From positions 1,056,001 through 1,120,000 of the forward strand of contig OZ241917.1 in the NCBI GenBank assembly GCA_965203805.1: a DNA stretch of 64,000 nt. Direction: 5' to 3'. The number at the start of each line of letters is the position of its first letter. Positions within the stretch are counted from its first letter, which is position 1. The notes beneath the pieces were generated by a model. The model was given only the letters and a program-made list of their open reading frames with translations. It had not been told where the DNA came from and did not search any database. Source of the stretch: Candidatus Latescibacterota bacterium. GTDB lineage: Bacteria > Latescibacterota > UBA2968 > GCA-2709665. Shown piece after piece: positions 43,626 to 53,327 of the stretch. Made by a program: the position numbers and the translations under genes.

Positions 43626-43831
43626 TCACACCCGAAACACCTTCATCACCTTGTCGCCAAGGTGATTGATTACTTTCACCGCGATTTGGCCTGATTTCGG
43701 CTTCGCAAAAGGCCTTGAGGTGTCGCTGTGGAGGGTTTCCGGGCTTCCTGATTAACCTCAGCCTTTAGGGTGGTTTTGAGCGATTTATAGGGGTCGTTTG
43801 CGCCGAGGAAATAGGCTTGGCTAGTGAAGAG
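43626..43831 (-). pseudogene. Frameshifted relic of the 3' end of a type III mod gene
   Basis: Encodes QAYFLGANDPYKSLKTTLKAEVNQEA/ETLHSDTSRPFAKPKSGQIAVKVINHLGDKVMKVFRV*, nearly identical in protein to the mod C-terminus at 45418-45620; 1-nt deletion. Confidence 0.9.
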
Positions 43832-43913
43832 GCAACGCTCGTTTGTGGCCGTTTCGACAACATAACGGCGGGTGAGGCAATGTTGGGTGGCTGTTGATAC
43901 CACTGATCTATTC

Positions 43914-45095
43914 TTAGATCGTGCAGAGATCAAACGTCACCCTGACGTACCCACCCTTGTCATCCTGAAATAAACCAGGTTCGGTTCCATTGAAGTCGAG
44001 CATTGACTTACGCATCACGGGCCATCCCCGACCCCGCTGCTCCATGAATCCCTTGACAACCATAATGTTCGCCATGAGTTCGTTTCTCGATCTTGGATGA
44101 GCTCCCGCGCGGACACTCTCAACCGTCATATGATTCGGCAACGAACCGGGACTACTCACATCGACGTGCTGAGAGAAGACTTCAAGAAGCACCTTTGATC
44201 CTGTGATCGCGTAATCCCGATGCACAACGGCGTTGACTAACGCTTCCCGAAGCGCTGCTTCGGGCAATAGCAAACGGTCTTTCCTCGTCAGTCCACGATA
44301 CGACTCAAATCTCCCAAGACCGTGAAACCAACCGACAGCACGTTCGACCTGTTCATCCAATCGACCAGTCACGTCTGCTACCTGAAGCGTATTCGAAGCC
44401 CGGTCCTCTCCTTCATAAGCGACACATTCTATCCGAAAGCTGTGCGTTTGTGGGTAGCGCTGCGGTTCCCTGCCGAATGCCAGTACACCGTAGAGGGTGG
44501 GGTGCAAACCGTCTCCCAAATGTGCCACCACTCCCCGATTACGGAGGTCGTCAATGTCTTCTGGCTGAGGTTCTCCGGGAATTTCGAGCCCATTTGCCTG
44601 GAGATACTCGCGAAAGCACTGGAAATCGATATCGTCCGTTGTCGCAGCCTGAATCGGGCGTTCCTCGGTCATAATGTAACCGAAAGCGTTGTAGAGTTCC
44701 TGTAATTCGCTGGGTGATGGCTCGACGTTGTTGCGTTCCCTTCGGACCCAAACCCGGCCATCGTAGCGCATCGGCTCGAAACTTCGCTGCCGAGGAATCT
44801 CAATCCAATGTACCCAACCTTTCGGATCCTCATGCCACCCGCGATGTGCGGTGACCGGCGAGCTGCAACCCACTTCCAAGAAAGAAGTCAACCTCTCCTG
44901 AACTCTCTCCGCATCCTCTCTGACCCCGACAATTTCCTGGGCAGGGTCGATGCCCAGAATAACAACGCCTCCGTCGGTGTTTGCAAATGCGCATATCGCT
45001 TTGCCGATCGCAGTCAGGTCGCAGGGGCCGCGTTTGAACTCGCTGTGCCGGTCCTCGCCCAATTCGACTCGCTCAAGGATGTTTAGCCAATCCAT
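43914..45095 (-). CDS. AlbA_2/Schlafen-domain protein with HATPase-like (RecG-C-type) domain
   Basis: GE....EFKR, ICAFANTDGG..ILGI, ALREALVNAVVHRDY, SPG.LP, RN. Confidence 0.85.
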   Translation of the reverse strand: MDWLNILERVELGEDRHSEFKRGPCDLTAIGKAICAFANTDGGVVILGIDPAQEIVGVREDAERVQERLTSFLEVGCSSPVTAHRGWHEDPKGWVHWIEIPRQRSFEPMRYDGRVWVRRERNNVEPSPSELQELYNAFGYIMTEERPIQAATTDDIDFQCFREYLQANGLEIPGEPQPEDIDDLRNRGVVAHLGDGLHPTLYGVLAFGREPQRYPQTHSFRIECVAYEGEDRASNTLQVADVTGRLDEQVERAVGWFHGLGRFESYRGLTRKDRLLLPEAALREALVNAVVHRDYAITGSKVLLEVFSQHVDVSSPGSLPNHMTVESVRAGAHPRSRNELMANIMVVKGFMEQRGRGWPVMRKSMLDFNGTEPGLFQDDKGGYVRVTFDLCTI

Positions 45096-45737
45096 ACTGA
45101 AAGACCTCAAGACCCACATTTCAGCCGGCGTCGGCAAGACGCTTCGGCACCAGCGTCAACGGTCCTGACACGATGGCGTCGCGGACGGCCGGTTGCTAAA
45201 TAGGCCCGGCACACGCTATGCGGCCTTGATATGCCATCGCCTCCAATTGGATTACTTGATGCGCGTCGCCATTGACGACGACTTTCTCCAAGCAAGTGTT
45301 CCGACTGTCAACGGTGTCCGATAGCGAAGCCCGTTGGAGATCAGATGCTGATTTCGTCGACGCGTCAGCTAATCTTTCACGCTTCTTGCAACCGAATAAT
45401 ATACAATGCAGCGAAACTCACACCCGAAACACCTTCATCACCTCGTCGCCGAGGTGATTGATTACCTTTACCGCAATCCTGCCGGACTTTGGTTTTGCGA
45501 ATGGCCGGGATGTGTCGCTATGGAGGGTTTCCCAGGCTTCCTGGTTGATTTCGGCTTTGAGGGTGGTCTTGAGAGATTTGTATGGGTCGTTTGCGCCGAG
45601 GAAGTATGCCTGGCGAACAAAGAAGCTCTCCTCGTTGTAGTCGGTATCCACGAACCAGCAAGCGATTCCATCAGCGTTGTCGCTGCGGACCTCGCCGGTG
45701 TTGGGGTGAAACACATCTACGCCATGGACGGTGACCT

Positions 45738-45760
45738 GTGACCAGTGGCCGGTGGTCAGT
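45738..45760. repeat. Heptamer-repeat arm downstream of the nested gene
   Basis: gtgaccagtggccggtggtcagt, inverted relative to 46174-46196. Confidence 0.8.
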
Positions 45761-45782
45761 GAAAGCGGGAAATCTGAGCTAC

Positions 45783-46151
45783 TCAGGTCCTCGAGTGCAG
45801 CGAGCGTTTTAGCCCGTTGAGCATACGTCCGATTTCTCCCGTTTGACTCAGTAGCTGATTGACCTGTTCCGTCGTGGCCATCCCCAATCGGCGCACCAGA
45901 ATCAGGTATGTCTCCGTCTCTGCCAGAGACCCGCTCGCGATCCCCAGAAACCGAAGAAACTCCCTGGTCCCGTGTCGTTCTGCTCCCTCGGCGATGTTCG
46001 CCGCGATCGAAATCACCGATCTCCGTATCTGGCTGCTGAGACCGTACTTCTCGTCCGGCGGAAACTGAGCAGAGACTCGATAGATCTTCTCTGCCAAGTC
46101 TATTGATTTCTTCCAAACTTCCAATTCCTGATAACTCTTCAATGTGCTCAT
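45783..46151 (-). CDS. Four-helix-bundle protein (23S rRNA IVP / bAvd-like family) nested inside mod
   Basis: SYQELEVWKKS...FP.DEKYGL.SQIRRS..SI.ANIAEG......EF.RFL.IA.GSL.E.ET signature; own ATG after AGGATGG; +1 frame relative to mod. Confidence 0.93.
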   Translation of the reverse strand: MSTLKSYQELEVWKKSIDLAEKIYRVSAQFPPDEKYGLSSQIRRSVISIAANIAEGAERHGTREFLRFLGIASGSLAETETYLILVRRLGMATTEQVNQLLSQTGEIGRMLNGLKRSLHSRT

Positions 46152-46173
46152 AGTTCGCCACCATCCTGCCTCT

Positions 46174-46206
46174 ACTGGTCACCAGCCACTGACCACTGAC
46201 TACTGA
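46174..46206. repeat. Heptamer-repeat arm (TCAGTGG-like on minus strand) upstream of the nested gene
   Basis: Minus strand TCAGTAG TCAGTGG TCAGTGG CTGGTGA CCAGT. Confidence 0.85.
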
Positions 46207-46859
46207 AATATCCGGCTCCCCGAAGACGACAAATAGGTTTCCGTTGCCGGTGTTCTTAAGGTCTTCCGCCATGTGGAGGTCTGCATTCATACGCGCTTTG
46301 AGAACCGGGACGCGGCCAGCTTTGTTGAAATCCGAAGCATGGGCATCGTAGTTGAAAGCACAGGCGATTAACACATCAAAATCGGCATCGGCTGCCTCCC
46401 GGGCGGCCTGTACCAGATCGGGGCGGGAGACCGTGCCGAATTCGGGCCCAACAAAGATACCCGCGCGTTTCTCGGAACCGTATGAGGCGTTTCCCTCAGC
46501 GTAAGTTCCCTCTGCGCAGACAAGATCGCCGGGCCAGGGTCGCATCCCTGAGAAAAAAATCCGGTCCTCTTTGTGCGCCTGCTGGACGCCCGCGTTCTTG
46601 AGATTTTCCAGGATTATCTCCGCGAAGTCCGGCTTTTCTCCGTAGCCGAGTTTCGCCTCGGCGACGTTGTCTATCAATGCATCGTCTTCGTCGACACCGA
46701 GAAGTCGGTGCGGCGACAGACTCTCGACCGTGAACGGTCCCGCTACCCGCACTTTCTTCTTGTCCTCGAACGGCTTGTCGTAAAGATACTCGTAATCCGC
46801 TTTGGCGGCTATGGATGCATCGATTTCCTCTTGACGGGCGATGCGATAATCCCAGAATT

Positions 46860-46995
46860 CAGTGAGCAGTGGCTGAGTGGCCGGTGGCCAGTCTTCCGGC
46901 TTCTCACGCGGCACCTCCCATTCTTCCAATGGCCGGCCGATGTTTTGTGTCCCTTCGCGGCCTCCCGACCACTGGCCACTGACCACTGACAACTG
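46860..46995. repeat. Second inverted pair of heptamer-repeat arms inside mod (46860-46893 and 46967-46995)
   Basis: Minus strand CAGTTGT CAGTGGT CAGTGGC CAGTGGT ... GACTGGC CACCGGC CACTCAG CCACTGC. Confidence 0.75.
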
Positions 46996-48723
46996 TTCCC
47001 GCAACGTCTCCAGCGTTTCCTGGTATTTCTCCCAGATTACATCGATTTCGGCGTTGTTGGCGATGGACTTAAGGGTAATATGTGGAACGCGCTCGTACAC
47101 GAAACCCTGACGAATATCGTTACCCGTGGTCGCTTCCGAGGGAGCTTTTCGGGCGAGCGCGGCTTCCTTGATTTGGCCGTCGCGGCTGTCGGAGAGCAGG
47201 TAGTAGGGATAGCGTGCACCCATGACGCGGGCTCGGGCGAGCGCGAGGGCGACGCGGGAGGTGTCGATTGTGATCCAGCGGCGACCCCACTGCTCAGCGA
47301 CGTAGGCCGTGGTGCCGGAGCCGCAGGTGGGGTCGAGGACGAGATCGCCGGGGTCGGTGGTCATTAGAATGCAGCGTTCGACTACTCGACGTGCTGTTTG
47401 AACGACGTAGACCTTATACTCACTCCAACCCGCGATGGCTGTATCGTTCCACGCATTATTCAATGGCAGGGCGGGGTAATCGCTAAGGTATCGTACGTAG
47501 TTCACTGAAGATGAACGGACATAGAGACGATTGGCCTTGTCGAGCCTTCTCATACCGCCCACATTGGTCTTCCACCCTCCAGATCCAGGACGGAAGCACC
47601 GGCCACGATAGGAGTATTCGAACCGAGTGGTGTCGCCCCCCGATTGGGATGTCAAGTTATCGATTCTCAGGCAGTCTCTGGTAGTCTTTGGGTCGACTAA
47701 TTCAGAGGCTGCCAGCCGTCTAATCTCCCCTCCGTCATCACGCACGTAAACATATTCCGCAGCACCCTGTGTTTGGTGGGACTTGCTTCGTTTCAGACTA
47801 CGGAATTTCATCATCTCCTTGTTTCGTGAGTACCAGATAGCACAGTCCGATACGCTCGGAATAAAGGCAGATGTGGCGCTTGATGTCTTGGCGAACGAAA
47901 TGGTGCTCACATGATTCATCTCTCCAAACACCTCGTCCATCAACGCCCGCACCCGGTGCACATTCTCGTCGCCAATCTGGACGAAGACCGACCCACTCTC
48001 CGTCAACAGATCCCGCGCCACAGTCAGCCGGTCCCTCAGATATGTTAAGTAGGAATGAATCCCGTCCCGCCACGTATCCCGAAAGGCCTTGACCTGCTCA
48101 GGCTCGCGGGTGATGTGATCGGCCTTGCCGTCCTTGACGTCGCGGCTGGTCGTTGACCATTGGAAGTTTGAGTTAAACCTGATGCCGTACGGCGGATCAA
48201 TGTAGATGCACTGCACTTTGCCGCGGAGCCCCTCTCGCTCCGTCAGCGACGCCATCACCTGTAGACTATCGCCGAGAATCATCCGGTTCGACTAGTTGGC
48301 ATCGTGCAGGTAAAATTCCGTCTGAGCGTCCGTACTCGGTAGCCCGTTGAAATCCGCGAACAGGTCGGGTTGGGTGCCCGATTCGCCCTCCGTTTTCCCA
48401 GTATCCGATTCTTTGCTACGCTGCCGCAGGTCGTCGATTAACACCTTGGGTTGAACCTTTTCCTGAATAAACAGCGGCGGTGCCTGCACGACAAGATCGG
48501 ACCAATTCTGCTCGTCCTTCCCCCGCCACACAAGTTGTGGATCCAGATCCCGGTTCCGTCGTTCGTACGCCACCTTGATCGGATTTCTATCGTCATCCTT
48601 TATTACCGCCTGATATTCAGCCGTAGGGATGTTCTTTCTCGTCGCGTCCTGATGTCGAATGGCTTCGACCTGTTTGGTTTTTCGTGCTTTTCGCGCCATC
48701 TAAGGTTTCACTCCTCCACATTT

Positions 48724-48912
48724 CTACCTGGTCGGTTCTACTCCGAGATCGCGGCAGATCTTTCTTGCCAACCAATCGTCGATTTCTCGATGGCGTGGAA
48801 TCGCAGAACGACGGCCATTTCGGTCGTTACGCCACCAGGAATGCCTCCCGCCTTCACGGATCAAGGCGCATCCGTGCCGCCGAAGGTGTTTAAGCAGGTC
48901 AACCCGCTTCAT
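48724..48912 (-). CDS. hicA: HicA family toxin
   Basis: MKR.DL.KHL...GC...REGG.H..W.N......IPRH.EI...LA.KIC..LG. Confidence 0.9.
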   Translation of the reverse strand: MKRVDLLKHLRRHGCALIREGGRHSWWRNDRNGRRSAIPRHREIDDWLARKICRDLGVEPTR

Positions 48913-49118
48913 GTTATCACGACCTTCTCCTCATGATAGTCCTCGCCCGCCGCATCCAAAGCTTCGCGCCGGTTGAATTTCAATGCCTCGGAGAGGGTTT
49001 CCACGAGGCTCTGCCTTAATTCTTTATGGGTACGTTCCTGGCAATTCACGCCAGGTACTTCCTCAATCCAGCCAATCCACCACTTACCTCTGCGTTTCAC
49101 GACGGCTGTGTATTCCAT
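48909..49118 (-). CDS. hicB: HicB family antitoxin (short form)
   Basis: YTAVVK....WWIGWIEEVPGVNCQE.T..EL; ATGA overlap with hicA. Confidence 0.9.
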   Translation of the reverse strand: MEYTAVVKRRGKWWIGWIEEVPGVNCQERTHKELRQSLVETLSEALKFNRREALDAAGEDYHEEKVVIT

Positions 49119-49120
49119 GT

Positions 49121-49259
49121 TCACCTCGTAGTCTTGACGGAAAGGCAACCTTCGACGGCGTCATAGAGGTTTGTCAGAAACTCCCCAAAGGATTCACCTT
49201 GCGTCGCACATCCAGGGACGGGGGTACTTGCACCGATGGATCACAACTTTCAATTTCAT
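49121..49259 (-). pseudogene. Second hicB-type antitoxin gene, internally deleted and frameshifted
   Basis: MKLKVVIH, then a shifted frame VPGCATQGESFGEFLTNLYDAVEGCLSV; RBS GAGG; 139 nt is not a multiple of 3. Confidence 0.8.
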
Positions 49260-49336
49260 TGTTACCTCATCGACCAGTTCGAGGTCGCTGTTCACCTCAA
49301 TCATTACGCTACCCCTTCCGCCGAAGGTGCAGCAGT

Positions 49337-50116
49337 TCACGCCGCAACACGTTGCAAGACCTTCCGATTGAAGTCTTCTCGGGAAGCCAGAGATGATATC
49401 ATATCGCCGCCGACGTCGGAGAGTCTCGCCAGATCCCTCCTGGGGATCTCCGCCTGATCTTCGAACACGAGAATGGACTCGAAGTGGAGGTCGTGCCGGT
49501 GGAAATGTGAAAGCATGATCGTCGTTAGACGTGCCTTGTCACGGTTTGGTACACCGTAGAGGAACAAAGGAACGTCCCCCTTGCCCTCGATGCGGTAGTC
49601 CACGGGGTAGACCTCGGCGTTTGGTACCCGCGGTTGGAAGTCCCGTTCGATCTTGGCTTCGTCCACCATGCTGAAAAGAAGATCGGTCAAGTCGTCGTAG
49701 AACGTGGAACCGACGTTCGAGCGAGACAGCATCGTCAGGTCGTAGACCCTGGTCAGCGCCTGTCCAAAGGAAAAGATGGCTTCCGGCAGCCGTTCAGGTG
49801 ACGTCTCCAGCGAGAAGGCGCCGCCGTCCCATTGAAGTCCGGTTTCACCCATGATGCGTTCAAGGAGCATCCCCCGCGTTCCATCCAGAAATGCGTCCAC
49901 GTCATGCTCGTAGCTGATGTGCATGAGTGTGTGTCCGCGATCCGACAGCCGGAACCCGCCCGACCCCACTTCGGCAAGGTGAATCGGATAGCGGTCTCCA
50001 TCGGGAAACTCGAAACGCGTGCGAAGCATTAACGCTCCGTCAGGGCGTTGTTCGACTCCTACGTCTTCGCAGAGACGTTTGCATAATAGCTCTCGAAGCG
50101 CGTCGAGGTCGATCAT
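49337..50116 (-). CDS. DUF1828-domain protein
   Basis: T.F.FPDGD...I........LSD.G.T; C-terminal VDY.I nuclease-like segment. Confidence 0.75.
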   Translation of the reverse strand: MIDLDALRELLCKRLCEDVGVEQRPDGALMLRTRFEFPDGDRYPIHLAEVGSGGFRLSDRGHTLMHISYEHDVDAFLDGTRGMLLERIMGETGLQWDGGAFSLETSPERLPEAIFSFGQALTRVYDLTMLSRSNVGSTFYDDLTDLLFSMVDEAKIERDFQPRVPNAEVYPVDYRIEGKGDVPLFLYGVPNRDKARLTTIMLSHFHRHDLHFESILVFEDQAEIPRRDLARLSDVGGDMISSLASREDFNRKVLQRVAA

Positions 50117-50240
50117 TAGAGCATCCGCTTCGGCATTGACCGGAGTCCTGCAAGCTCCTCGTCGGTATATAGCTTGGTATTCACGTACAATCGCCGGCAG
50201 GCTCATTCGAGTGATGAACCTACCTCGCCTCCCTTTTTGC

Positions 50241-53200
50241 TCAGGCTTCGACAGTCTGCTGGTTGCACCTGAGTATTTCGTTCCGGATCATTTCATCAAA
50301 CGTCGCTTCCACTTTTGACTCGAAGTCTGCTTGCATCTCGTAAACGTCGGAGAACTCTGCGAACGCCCATCGCCCGTAGTTCTCGAGGTTGTTCACGCCA
50401 GGGACCCAGTAGGTGTCCATTGTGGTCTTCTTCTGCTTGGCGTCCTCGCCTCGATAGCCTTTGATTTCCACGATGAGGTGCAGAGGATCATCTTCACCTC
50501 GTCCGTCGTCAACGACGACGATAAAGTCGGGGATGTACGTCCGTGTTTTCGAACCATGTCTGTAGGGTACTTCGAGTCCCAGATTGTGATTCTTGACGTA
50601 CGATTTTACCTGGGGATGAGATTCGGCAACACGGCAGAATTCCGCCTCCCAGTCGCTGTCCAGTACCACCCAATTGATGTGGCAGCGACGTGGATCCGTT
50701 TGATATCGTCTCGTTTTGGTCGTATTGAAATTCACCTCGGCGGTCGATCCGAACGGGTTGTAGGGATCGAGCACGGCCTTAACAGGACGACTGCCAATTT
50801 GCGCCTGGGTGATGGCCGCCGTGATTCGATTGCACGCGTCGTCTGCAAGCGCCTGGTACATCAATTGCGCCGGGTAGGTGCTTCCCTTGCAGATAAGACA
50901 GTTATCCAACCATTTCCTTGTGATGCTCTTCAGTTGTCCGAAGAGATGGAGCTTCGGTTCATCTCCCGGATCCCGCCATTTTGTATACAATAGCCTCTGG
51001 GTAAGGTGGAACAAGAGTGTGGATTGCCGAAGATCGTTTGTATGGATCAGGTTGAGATCCACGCCTTCACCAATAATCCCCTGATTGGTGGTAATGGACG
51101 GCCCGATCAGATCCGGCGTCAGTTCCATAACGGAGTCGTCGTTGAACTCGGCCGTAAGCCTCTCTTCGGGCAATTCCACGCGATATCCGGCCACCCGGGG
51201 GAATCGTATCTCAAGTGCGTCCCTCTCCGGCCGCATCGCGCGTACCTGGACAGTTTCTCGCGGGGCAGGTGGAGCAACCACGACAGGTTTGGCGGTAAAG
51301 TCGAATGGTATGCCCAAGACGTCAGCATACTCCACGTCGAACAAGCCGATGTCATTGAGATCGTAGGACTGACGGCGCAGGGCGCGGCCGACAACCTGCT
51401 CACAGAGCAACTGAGTGCCGAATGCGCGGACTCCCAGAACGTGGCTGACGTTGTTCGCGTCCCAGCCTTCGGTGAGCATGGACACAGAAACCACACACCG
51501 AATGGAATCCCCGAGCCGGCCGGCCTTGCCGACCGTGTTCATGACCTCACGGAGAAGCTCCTGGTCGGAGATCTTTTCAGCCTGTTGTCGATCCCCCGTT
51601 CGTTCGATAATCTCTCGCCTGAATCGTTCGATTTCATCGGCGGCCATCTTCCGGAAACTCGTGTCCAACGCGTCGCCGGACTCCAACTGCTCGCTGTCTA
51701 TAAGTAAAGTACGTGGCCGAGCGAACTTTTCTCCATATTCGTCGAAGTTGCGAAACAGATCGAGGCGTCCCTGAACAAAATTCGACGAACCTTCGTCGGT
51801 CTCGCGATAGAATCCGGAGATGTAGTCGTAAACCAGCTTGGATGTCGACGTATTGTTGCAGACGACGATAAAACACGGCGGAACGGTTATGCCCGCGTTT
51901 TCCATCACTTCAAAGGTATTCTTGTAATGCCCGTAAAGCGCCTCCAGCGCTGTCTGCAGTTCAACGGGAAGGCTCAGCGGATCGAGATGCTTGCTCTTGC
52001 CGCGTCCCTTCTTTGGCATGGCAGGACGAATGTGTTCCCAGAGGTTCCTGAACTTGGGCATGTCCCCACCGGGGATGTTGTCCGCTACGGGCACGCGGGG
52101 AAGTTTGACGATGCCGCACTCAATCGCATCCATCAACGAAAAGTCGCACATTGTCCATGGGAACAGTGTCCCTTCCGCATATCCGGAACCACGCAAGAAG
52201 AAAGGCGTGGCTGAGAGATCCAGGACACGGCTGATGCCAAGCTTTCTGTCAACCGTCTCCAGTCCCGAAATCCACAGACGCGCGGCTTCCGTGTTCTTCT
52301 CGGCTTCTTTCCTATCGTCACCCTTAAGCGTGCCTTCCTCCCCGCGCCCCGGCTTTTCACGGTAGCAGTGATGGGCTTCGTCATTCAGGACGATGACATT
52401 CTTGATCCCCATCAGTTCGGGCATCACCCGCTGGAGCATCTGACCCTCTGATTCCAACGTCGCCAATGGTTCGCCACGACCTTGAAGTAATAAACGACCT
52501 CCCTTGGAAAGGTCAAAGCGCTCCCGCAACTTGAACGCGTGGTAATTGGTGATGACGATCTTCGCCTGTTGAAGATCCGCCAGCATGTCGCCTGGGACCA
52601 ATTCACGTTGTTTATAGTAGCTGTCCGGATCGTTGGGTTGCAACACACGCAGCCGATCCTTGATCGTGATACCGGGCGTGACGACGAGGAATCCCCGCGT
52701 AAATCGCCTGCTCTGCGGTCGGCGTACGGCGTTGATGGTCTGCCATGCGATCAACATCGCCATGACCGTGGTCTTGCCAGCCCCCGTCGCCAGTTTTAAC
52801 GCCAGTCGCTGCAATCCTGTATTCGCTTCTTTGTTGGCGCTGGCCAGATGGTCGAGGAATCTCCTGCCGGTCGCGCCGGCTTGCGGGGCAACCTCTGTCA
52901 GCCAGATAACCGTTTCCACGGCTTCGATCTGACAAAAGAATGGCTTAATATCATTAAACGGATGTTTCCGCCAGTACTCGAGCAATCGGGCAGTTTCGGA
53001 TGAGACCTGCCATTGTCTGGGATTCGGCAGTTTTCGCCAGCGGTCGACCTGAAGTCGTACGCCGTTGATAATTTCGGTCAGGTCGTATTGCTGGCCTTCT
53101 GTCCCGAGTCTCCTGGCAGCCTCGTCGAAGACCATCGCCGTTTGATCCGTTGAAGATCCCGTTCGCTTTCTCGGCAATGGGATGGGCGAAATAAACTCTG

Positions 53201-53327
53201 CCCGCCTTCGACTTTCGACGACATTCTGTGTAGGCTGGCCGGTCTCATCCAGCTCCCAGTGTCTGCTCGGGTACTCGTACGGCGAGTTGAGTATCGGTCG
53301 TTCGAAGAATTGATCGCTCAAATCCAA
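50241..53327 (-). CDS. res: Type III restriction endonuclease Res subunit
   Basis: PILNSPY, LATGAGKT, NDEAHHCY, SATP, MLTEGWD, QVVGRALRR, YIPDF...VEIKG. Confidence 0.93.
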   Translation of the reverse strand: MDLSDQFFERPILNSPYEYPSRHWELDETGQPTQNVVESRRRAEFISPIPLPRKRTGSSTDQTAMVFDEAARRLGTEGQQYDLTEIINGVRLQVDRWRKLPNPRQWQVSSETARLLEYWRKHPFNDIKPFFCQIEAVETVIWLTEVAPQAGATGRRFLDHLASANKEANTGLQRLALKLATGAGKTTVMAMLIAWQTINAVRRPQSRRFTRGFLVVTPGITIKDRLRVLQPNDPDSYYKQRELVPGDMLADLQQAKIVITNYHAFKLRERFDLSKGGRLLLQGRGEPLATLESEGQMLQRVMPELMGIKNVIVLNDEAHHCYREKPGRGEEGTLKGDDRKEAEKNTEAARLWISGLETVDRKLGISRVLDLSATPFFLRGSGYAEGTLFPWTMCDFSLMDAIECGIVKLPRVPVADNIPGGDMPKFRNLWEHIRPAMPKKGRGKSKHLDPLSLPVELQTALEALYGHYKNTFEVMENAGITVPPCFIVVCNNTSTSKLVYDYISGFYRETDEGSSNFVQGRLDLFRNFDEYGEKFARPRTLLIDSEQLESGDALDTSFRKMAADEIERFRREIIERTGDRQQAEKISDQELLREVMNTVGKAGRLGDSIRCVVSVSMLTEGWDANNVSHVLGVRAFGTQLLCEQVVGRALRRQSYDLNDIGLFDVEYADVLGIPFDFTAKPVVVAPPAPRETVQVRAMRPERDALEIRFPRVAGYRVELPEERLTAEFNDDSVMELTPDLIGPSITTNQGIIGEGVDLNLIHTNDLRQSTLLFHLTQRLLYTKWRDPGDEPKLHLFGQLKSITRKWLDNCLICKGSTYPAQLMYQALADDACNRITAAITQAQIGSRPVKAVLDPYNPFGSTAEVNFNTTKTRRYQTDPRRCHINWVVLDSDWEAEFCRVAESHPQVKSYVKNHNLGLEVPYRHGSKTRTYIPDFIVVVDDGRGEDDPLHLIVEIKGYRGEDAKQKKTTMDTYWVPGVNNLENYGRWAFAEFSDVYEMQADFESKVEATFDEMIRNEILRCNQQTVEA

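Follow-up and report, generated by a model that had tools for sequence, protein, structure and literature searches.

A PF05635 four-helix-bundle gene with inverted heptamer arms lies nested in the open frame of Type III mod genes and of other bacterial coding genes

Results

A second gene inside a Type III mod gene

We analysed a 64,000-nucleotide stretch (the window) of the genome of a Candidatus Latescibacterota bacterium (GCA_965203805.1, contig OZ241917.1, positions 1,056,001 to 1,120,000), in which the mod gene of a predicted Type III restriction-modification (R-M) system carries, within its coding frame, a cassette containing a complete gene of the PF05635 four-helix-bundle family. In the list of open reading frames (ORFs) the host gene (45418..48282, minus strand) is a frame of 954 codons that stays open through the cassette. 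PF01555 (N6/N4 DNA-methylase domain) matches Mod residues 23-347 in a Pfam scan (E 2e-30), and the PADLOC MTase_III model PDLC03632 scores 1204 bits. Homologues are 65-79% identical to the window Mod, and a structure-database match shows that its N-terminal part resembles EcoP15I Mod (4zcf). Methylase domain, Mod profile and a neighbouring Res subunit together identify the gene as a Type III mod and its product as a predicted methylase.

The cassette comprises 468 nt (45739..46206, minus strand) and, as shown by anchor mapping, replaces the usual Mod loop between GEPDI and QVTVHGVDVF. Its length is divisible by three, and the Mod frame crosses it without a stop. A first-pass annotation, made from the sequence by itself, had estimated the insert at about 465 nt and read the Mod frame as stop-free through it, and the mapping of both anchors confirms this. 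The nested gene (45783..46151, minus strand) starts with ATG and encodes 122 amino acids in the +1 frame relative to Mod. PF05635 matches the nested protein over its full length (E 3.9e-40, 136.8 bits, cut-off 33.8; profile positions 1-106 of 106), and TIGR02436 scores 132.5 bits (cut-off 24). The nearest solved structure is XCC0516 (2gsc, E 3.8e-24, residues 5-119), and 2rld matches with an E-value of 2.5e-7. Judged by these relatives, the nested protein is predicted to be a four-helix bundle. A Shine-Dalgarno-like AGGA (46164..46167, minus strand), the putative ribosome-binding site, lies 12 nt 5' of the ATG, so that the earlier description of an intact gene with its own ribosome-binding site and start codon holds. 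Most related copies have a purine-rich leader before the nested ATG, and a Balneolales copy has an A-rich one.

Two arrays of heptamers bracket the nested gene. The 5' arm (46174..46205, minus strand) is an imperfect array of the GTCAGTG / GTGGTCA type, which reads SVVSGQWLVTS in the Mod frame. The 3' arm (45738..45762, minus strand) is an inverted array of the ACTGACC / CCACTGG type and reads SLTTGHWS. Positions 46174-46196 and 45738-45760 pair at 21 of 23 places, three of them G-U, exactly as the first-pass annotation had counted. Because the arms are heptamer arrays, two further registers, offset by 7 and 14 nt, pair about equally well. In a 496-nt RNA the arm stem closes the cassette in both the minimum-energy and the centroid fold; the z-score of the whole-insert fold is only -1.71, and 5 of 100 shuffles fold equally well. 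One fold hinted that the stem might occlude the ribosome-binding site, an idea that we dropped when the fold of a slightly longer stretch did not show it. A scan of 45000-47200 against Rfam gave no match better than E 0.9 and hence no known intron or ribozyme family. Pfam analysis of the Mod-frame protein returned PF01555 and two weak methyltransferase matches only, with no intein splicing domain. A sigma-70 promoter scan found 0 sites, using a model that may not suit this organism.

Independent short-read contigs from two metagenomic samples (X1 record 3 and X3 record 10) cross both cassette junctions with 0 differences; these contigs are possibly the genome's own source data. Empty mod alleles of other organisms are present in the same metagenomes. 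Metagenome contigs of other studies (runs X4 and X6) join 45765 to 46173, with 8-9 other letters replacing the nested gene, and would represent an arms-only form in a relative; the junction is weak (shorter side 22 letters, 85% likeness) and was not counted. A solo in-frame array of about three heptamers (46969..46992, minus strand), which resembles the 5' arm and has no nested gene, lies elsewhere in Mod, approximately 790 nt upstream of the cassette. It adds 11-12 amino acids (SVVSGQWSGG...) relative to most homologues, and these extra residues are common to P0001, P0002 and P0055. The solo array may be related to the cassette. As a candidate hairpin it was rejected, since it folds no better than shuffled sequences (z 0.08).

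The insert occupies a variable loop of the Mod C-terminal domain

We modelled the last 365 Mod residues with AlphaFold2 from an alignment of 44 filled and empty homologues. In the model, the peptides encoded by the arms prolong the strands on either side of the site to form a long hairpin (strands 99-112 and 252-269, with predicted local distance difference test (pLDDT) values of about 70-86 by block). Short helices follow the hairpin, and residues 154-228 fall below pLDDT 50. Empty alleles, too, vary in length at this loop. The model thus fits an insert that would form a floppy addition on a tolerant surface loop.

Filled alleles keep the Mod frame open

Homologous mod loci were examined in one genome per species. 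Both flanking anchors are present in 79 of the 80 loci. The site spans 27-84 nt (mostly 30 nt) in 66 empty loci and 207-468 nt in 13 filled ones, and neither a stop nor a frameshift occurs there in any of the 79. In the alignment of Mod homologues the short-loop form reads GEPDI-DILDAEDGQI-KVKVNG, and the filled form has an insert of about 156 residues at the same place. Relatives from the same order add two filled alleles, one open and one (L096) frameshifted. Including the window, 15 of 16 filled alleles are therefore in frame and stop-free. The Mod frame is full-length from stop to stop in 11 of the 13 non-window filled loci. The 5' arm is kept in all 16 filled alleles, and a canonical ATG starts the nested gene in 12 of the 13 full-length copies nested in Mod. 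In L010, L019 and L020 the nested gene carries internal deletions or stops, yet Mod remains open and the length a multiple of three. The exception, L096 (G024:C1, ~3382404-3383493), has one extra GTGGCCA in a run of perfect heptamers in its 5' arm, which shifts the Mod frame. This extra unit is possibly a slipped-strand on/off event.

According to record titles, the filled loci span phyla that include Pseudomonadota, Chloroflexota, Lentisphaerota, Balneolota, Latescibacterota, Poribacteria and Planctomycetota. At the protein level, the insert is read as one continuous protein in 110 of the best 120 clusters, again from many phyla, in a ranking that favours filled, open forms.

Other inserts were seen in Mod as well. 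The "empty" allele L046 has a 72-nt loop with a short GC-rich palindrome (..CTCCCCTCTCCCGCCGGGAGAGGGG..), and the same Mod loop therefore accepts other small inserts. P0098, P0012, P0006 and P0004 have in-frame inserts at other Mod sites that resemble translated heptamer arrays, and the Mod homologue of Thioflavicoccus mobilis contains a run of about 130 residues (GDQWPV.GGRQDPSP.. repeated).

Selection acts differently on the two frames

We compared both frames in 11 full-length nested copies. Divergence at the three codon positions of the nested frame is 0.29, 0.23 and 0.53. The mean amino acid identity is 63% for the nested protein and 38% for the Mod-frame translation of the same bases. 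The ratio of non-synonymous to synonymous changes (dN/dS, Nei-Gojobori) is 0.16-0.19 in the nested frame and an apparent 1.1-1.9 in the Mod frame. The nested protein is thus conserved in sequence, whereas the Mod frame is not conserved as a sequence but is free of stops in the copies compared. With a third-position divergence near 0.5, many substitutions have already been screened for stops.

Depletion of stops was assessed by synonymous shuffling of the nested genes, the check that the first-pass annotation had proposed. It predicts a mean of 1.0-3.1 host-frame stops per copy by permutation and of 1.8-5.3 by host codon usage, that is, about 1-5 where 0 were found in the copies compared. For the 11 copies, the probability of 0 stops is 0.018-0.31 per copy by permutation and 0.0014-0.15 by host codon usage, values that must not be multiplied because the copies are related. 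For the nested gene of the window the corresponding figures are 0.05 and 0.016. Free-standing PF05635 genes in 40 relatives serve as a comparison: 22 of 24 have 2-10 stops in the host-equivalent frame. The two stop-free copies, L092 and L098, have frames that are open for only 227 and 155 codons, with no long host gene.

The complementarity of the arms is also maintained. Over 16 copies, 87.5% and 84.2% of the cells are paired in two registers, compared to 24-55% when the partner is slid by 1-3 columns. Both partners have changed in five or six pairs, and 0-2 of 500 shuffles attain the covariation score, in a control known to be lenient when sequences are related. The registers preferred by RNAalifold and by single-sequence folding differ by 7 and 14 nt. 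The arm stem is thus robust but slippery in register. Stops or frameshifts in most related filled alleles and arms devoid of compensatory pairing, which the first-pass annotation had named among the grounds for refuting its reading, are not what these comparisons show: 15 of 16 alleles are open and 84-88% of the arm cells are paired.

The insert is scattered over the Mod tree

For 16 filled and 66 empty alleles, a tree was built from about 240 Mod residues that precede the site and 106 that follow it. It requires 15 changes between the filled and the empty state, compared to 14.8 for shuffled labels, and at least six changes are forced by branches with a Shimodaira-Hasegawa-like approximate likelihood ratio test (SH-aLRT) support of at least 95%. 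A single clade of filled alleles is rejected (log-likelihood difference 339, approximately unbiased (AU) test p 1e-4). There are two insert classes, of 468 nt and 441 nt, with nested proteins 51-58% identical to that of the window, and the hosts of the 441-nt class do not form one clade either (AU p 0.023). Filled alleles often have as their nearest neighbour an empty one from an organism of the same kind. Since filled alleles are scattered on the Mod tree, the insert has either moved between alleles or been lost repeatedly.

A genome of the same genus carries an empty allele with 88-89% nucleotide identity in both flanks. Its DNA homology to the window ends at 46208 and resumes at 45741, showing that the loop is replaced and that this is not a simple insertion. 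No target-site duplication is seen at the junctions compared with empty alleles. Most simply, mod alleles would have exchanged a cassette-bearing segment through homologous recombination; site-specific insertion is a possible alternative.

The same kind of cassette sits in other host genes

We searched metagenome contigs with an alignment of the nested protein and obtained 80 loci with 43-69% identity. The -1 frame, which is that of Mod, is stop-free across the nested gene in 18 of them, and the other same-strand frame in none of the 80. A long host frame, defined as a stop-free -1 frame that extends at least 100 codons past both ends of the nested gene or to the contig end, is present in 10 of these 18. 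The survey for nested genes in open host frames that had been suggested at the outset therefore yields 10 of 80 metagenomic relatives in several host families. In an eleventh, partial case (L146), the host frame stops within the 3' arm, and seven further copies are stop-free without a long host frame.

In L131 and L132 the host belongs to the same Mod family as in the window, an assignment based on both flank anchors only. L133, L135, L137 and L201 represent a second Mod-type family with a related C-terminus and the cassette at the homologous site, as indicated by PF01555 for L133 and L201 and by alignment for L135 and L137. L169 and L192 have Eco57I/MmeI- or N6_Mtase-like methylases as hosts, with a weak match for L192. 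The remaining two hosts are leucyl-tRNA synthetase (LeuRS; L185), where the cassette directly follows the editing domain, and the DNA polymerase III alpha subunit (Pol III alpha; L200), where it lies between the helix-hairpin-helix and OB domains. Pfam was run on seven host frames, including that of L146, and all seven nested ORFs scanned contain PF05635 (E 1e-36 to 6e-42). LeuRS and Pol III alpha of the genome studied here are colinear with L185 and L200 on both sides of the cassette. They have 6-9 codons at the site, compared to 142 residues in L185 and 167 in L200, so that these two hosts have 133-160 extra residues.

In the other hosts, too, every cassette comes with a start codon of its own, a purine-rich leader and heptamer arms in inverted orientation. 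The heptamer unit differs between hosts: GGGGACT in L185, GGTGTTA in L200, GCGAGCG in L169, GTTTTGA in L137 and L201, and GTGGTCA-like in the Mod copies. When all 5' arms are compared with all 3' arms, 6 of 10 cassettes score best in their row with their own partner; in the remaining four, the unit is shared with another cassette or the arm overlaps a stop codon. This match between own partners across hosts is the strongest sign of selection on arm complementarity itself. The LeuRS host L185 has a second copy of its 5'-arm peptide (GLGTGDWGLG) about 170 residues upstream of the cassette.

The genome studied here has three PF05635 genes, each with different flanking repeats. The two outside the window are intergenic (G000:C1:3573050-3573364 and C1:3083809-3083970), and their flanks consist of inverted arrays of GCTGA-type heptamers and of the 8-mers GAGAAGAC / CTCGTTCC. 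The PF05635 genes L092 and L108 (in G002 and G014) have, in place of inverted heptamers, direct arrays of a purine-rich unit of ~47 nt in both flanks. We rejected the generalization that all free-standing PF05635 genes have pairing flanks. In a duplex-energy test of 120-nt flanks only 6 of 23 loci score at or below 2 of 100 shuffles, a blunt test because shuffled repeat arrays keep their composition. Judged by eye, many free-standing loci have such flanks.

The surrounding R-M locus

On the same strand the gene order is Res, a DUF1828 gene, a HicA/HicB pair and then Mod. The Res subunit (50241..53327, minus strand) contains PF04851 ResIII and PF19778 RE_endonuc. The HicA/HicB-like pair and the DUF1828 gene are wedged between res and mod (48724-50206, minus strand). 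The N-terminal 135 codons of Mod (48292..48699, minus strand), a part that is fused in homologues of about 1085 amino acids, are split off by an in-frame TAG (48292-48294, minus strand). This TAG is codon 136 of full-length Mod and is replaced by Trp in homologues (HDAN, stop, SNRMILGD in the window). Short-read contigs (X1 record 8 and X3 record 14) span the TAG region with 0 differences. The Mod homologues P0002, P0003 and P0031 likewise begin at or just past this position.

The last ~230 nt of Mod (45418-45651) are duplicated 1.79 kb downstream, at 43626-43858, with 74-83% identity. The two duplicates bracket an AlbA_2 / HATPase_c_4 gene (43914-45137), which also matches PADLOC pAgo-associated models. 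The duplication looks like a remnant of a second mod allele or of a cassette swap.

Discussion

We propose, with a probability of roughly 0.78, that the element is an intervening-sequence-type PF05635 cassette which lives in protein-coding genes and survives by being translated through, with both frames read. In this view the cassette is a PF05635 gene that brings along its putative ribosome-binding site and lies between two arrays of a 7-nt repeat in inverted orientation, and it would occupy a variable surface hairpin loop in the C-terminal domain of Mod. It would not be removed: the ribosome that translates Mod is expected to read through it in the host frame, adding about 156 residues, of which those encoded by the arms may form a beta-stalk and most of the centre would be disordered. 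The same mRNA would yield the four-helix-bundle protein as a separate product of its +1 frame. Selection acts on the amino acid sequence of the nested protein; of the host frame it demands no more than freedom from stops and a length that is a multiple of three. The cassette segment has probably passed between diverged Mod alleles, most simply through homologous recombination that followed horizontal transfer, and the same kind of cassette also sits in other genes, with the host always in the -1 frame of the nested gene. The view of an intervening-sequence-like element that is tolerated as an in-frame dual-coding insert, which the first-pass annotation had based on the window gene, thereby gains support beyond that gene, in 15 of 16 filled alleles. 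Its further suggestion, that the insert might regulate the R-M system, has no support either way; 66 of 79 homologous loci are without the insert.

Several observations weigh against read-through translation of a functional host gene. The upstream TAG may mean that the Mod host in the window is inactive, either dead or N-terminally shortened. Damage somewhere in the gene affects 4 of 16 filled alleles (those of the window, L011 and L019, which are all truncated upstream, and the frameshifted L096), compared to 4 of 66 empty ones. The insert may therefore be costly or may sit in decaying genes, but the related genomes are not independent and we draw no conclusion. In L001 the nested ATG is replaced by ATA. 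A stop-free frame is not rare for a single gene (P up to 0.31), and the case therefore rests on recurrence in homologues; 9 of 93 free-standing copies (24 from relatives, 69 metagenomic) are also stop-free without a long host frame. The structural model is of modest quality, with a mean pLDDT of 61.8. As to the history of the insert, the AU tests rest on fast tree searches under LG+G4, and recombination of the flanks alone could scramble the flank tree.

A rival reading makes processing at the RNA level the main mode; it could also coexist with read-through, as a regulatory layer. RNase III would cut the arm stem, release the mRNA of the four-helix-bundle protein and split, and thereby down-regulate, the mod message, or the insert would be spliced out or bypassed. 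The arms speak for such processing: their complementarity is kept in 16 copies well above that of the slid partners, with a covariation score rarely reached by shuffles, the stem closes the cassette in both folds, and the units vary with the host gene yet stay complementary, the own partner being best in 6 of 10. Moreover, RNase III excises a PF05635-bearing intervening sequence from 23S rRNA (PMC4990558). Removal or constant cutting would not, however, keep the host frame open and the length divisible by three, as it is in 15 of 16 alleles and in 10 other nested copies. RNase III cuts are not religated, hence the Mod message would not be restored, and Rfam contains no matching intron or ribozyme. 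As to the arms, relatedness can inflate the covariation controls, and the stem fits more than one register. We consider processing unlikely on balance. Removal or bypass in particular appears to be unneeded and is disfavoured, because 15 of 16 filled alleles, among them three with a broken nested gene, are open and have a length divisible by three.

L096 suggests another role for the heptamers, that of a slipped-strand switch, where adding or dropping a single 7-nt unit would change the frame of Mod and so switch the methylase off or on. Its single extra GTGGCCA lies in a run of perfect copies, and repeat-driven, phase-variable Type III mod genes are well known (PMC5909438). This is a single case in 16, however; the arrays are short (3-4 units) and mostly imperfect, contigs over the window contain no +7 or -7 variants, though contigs drop rare variants, and a switch leaves the nested gene and the 3' arm unexplained, which makes it improbable as a general account. 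It is more doubtful still that the insert is now a mere Mod domain or linker, with the four-helix-bundle frame an unexpressed fossil. The parts of the insert beside the arms are modelled in the Mod frame at a block pLDDT of about 67-86, the ATG is lost in L001, three copies are internally deleted, and the ORF of the Coxiella intervening sequence is reported to be decaying and not synthesised in vivo (PMC4990558). Against such a fossil stand the third positions of the nested frame, which vary most (0.53), a dN/dS that is low in the nested frame and, in the Mod frame, as high as in an unconstrained one, the ATG kept in 12 of 13 full-length copies and leaders that match the translation-initiation style of the host. 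A chance open frame or an assembly artefact in this genome would agree with the stop-free probability of 0.016-0.05 for the single gene, which is not extreme. It is practically negligible as an explanation: both junctions are crossed without a difference by contigs of two samples (possibly the source data of the genome itself), and 15 further DNA loci and 110 protein clusters of many phyla show the same arrangement, a recurrence that refutes it.

Read-through translation of the cassette can be set against several known systems. Intervening sequences with a PF05635 ORF are found in the 23S rRNA of Leptospira. In Coxiella the 23S rRNA intervening sequence has 428 nt, contains an S23p ORF and is excised by RNase III (PMC4990558). 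The cassette encodes a protein of the same family and is of similar size (441-468 nt here, compared to 428 nt in Coxiella). In both cases, the terminal inverted sequences form a closing stem, and the element sits at a fixed site in a transcribed, conserved host gene. A patchy distribution that suggests horizontal acquisition is a further shared trait (PMC4990558). Unlike in 23S rRNA, where the host is an rRNA helix, the host here is a protein-coding gene. In its frame the cassette has to stay open, with a length that is a multiple of three, and it does so. In addition, the arms are tandem heptamer arrays and the evidence favours translation through over excision. The likeness to intervening sequences noted at first pass is thus upheld by family, size and stem. 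The relation to Avd of diversity-generating retroelements (DGRs), which it had also named, is recovered as a weak sequence match only. The bAvd model PF22296 gives 32.5 bits (cut-off 40) and NF033474 31.8 bits (cut-off 80), consistent with a distant relation in fold family. We rejected the nested protein as a DGR Avd, given these scores below the cut-offs and the lack of a nearby reverse transcriptase; the only RVT_1 match of the genome (C1:1679761-1680147) lies about 580 kb from the window.

Rickettsia palindromic elements (RPEs), a selfish kind of DNA, lie in frame in unrelated coding genes and are translated with the host protein, which is predicted to keep a workable fold and function (PMC10969869). 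The cassette resembles them and MITEs (transposable elements of the miniature inverted-repeat type) in its in-frame insertion, its inverted ends and, judged by the conserved open frame, in probably being read as host protein. RPEs differ in being about 150 bp long, multicopy per genome and devoid of an independent gene, whereas the cassette carries a complete conserved gene in another frame. It differs from RPEs and MITEs also in that the genome has only three PF05635 loci with unrelated flanking units and in that no target-site duplication is seen. Inteins and ORF-bearing group I and II introns are likewise selfish elements in conserved sites of essential or defence genes, which they do not destroy, and spread between alleles. 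Inteins, however, are in frame and removed as protein, introns are removed as RNA, and both encode their own mobility enzymes, while the nested gene is out of frame and encodes a small helical bundle without a known nuclease or maturase domain. With no intron RNA family or splicing domain detected, we discarded a self-splicing intron or an intein as candidates. As in overprinted same-strand genes, one stretch of DNA is used in two frames under asymmetric constraint. In overprinting a new ORF arises within an old gene, whereas here a gene of an old family would have been imported and the host frame laid over it. PF05635-family genes have also been noted inside cas loci (PMC3936711).

As a working guess, the small protein would bind the repeat arms. 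More tentatively, and with the odds rather against it, PF05635 cassettes with lineage-specific inverted heptamer arms could be widespread mobile intervening elements in rRNA, at intergenic sites and in defence or essential coding genes (Mod, Type IIG methylases, LeuRS and Pol III alpha), where they would always take the read-through frame. The protein might bind its own arms as RNA or DNA. It would thereby either preserve a usable host message, for instance by protecting the stem against RNase III or by coupling its own translation to that of the host, or promote the copying of the cassette into new alleles. A literature search, from which subscription journals and supplements were mostly excluded, found no description of a PF05635 gene nested in a coding gene.

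If our interpretation is correct, nested copies would be invisible in annotation, where gene callers usually report only the long host ORF, and the host proteins would have unexplained insertions of about 150 residues. Such loci would also provide research on overlapping genes with naturally occurring cases of long dual coding out of frame. PF05635, a large family with several solved structures, has been known from the 1990s onwards, and to our knowledge it has no assigned role outside DGRs. It would gain a testable context in the architecture of the cassette, the frame rule and the lineage-specific arms. Bacterial coding genes, even essential ones, would then be able to carry an entire foreign gene, read in a different frame, over long times, and being translated through would be a third lifestyle for selfish DNA within genes, beside that of introns, which are removed at the RNA level, and that of inteins, which are removed at the protein level.

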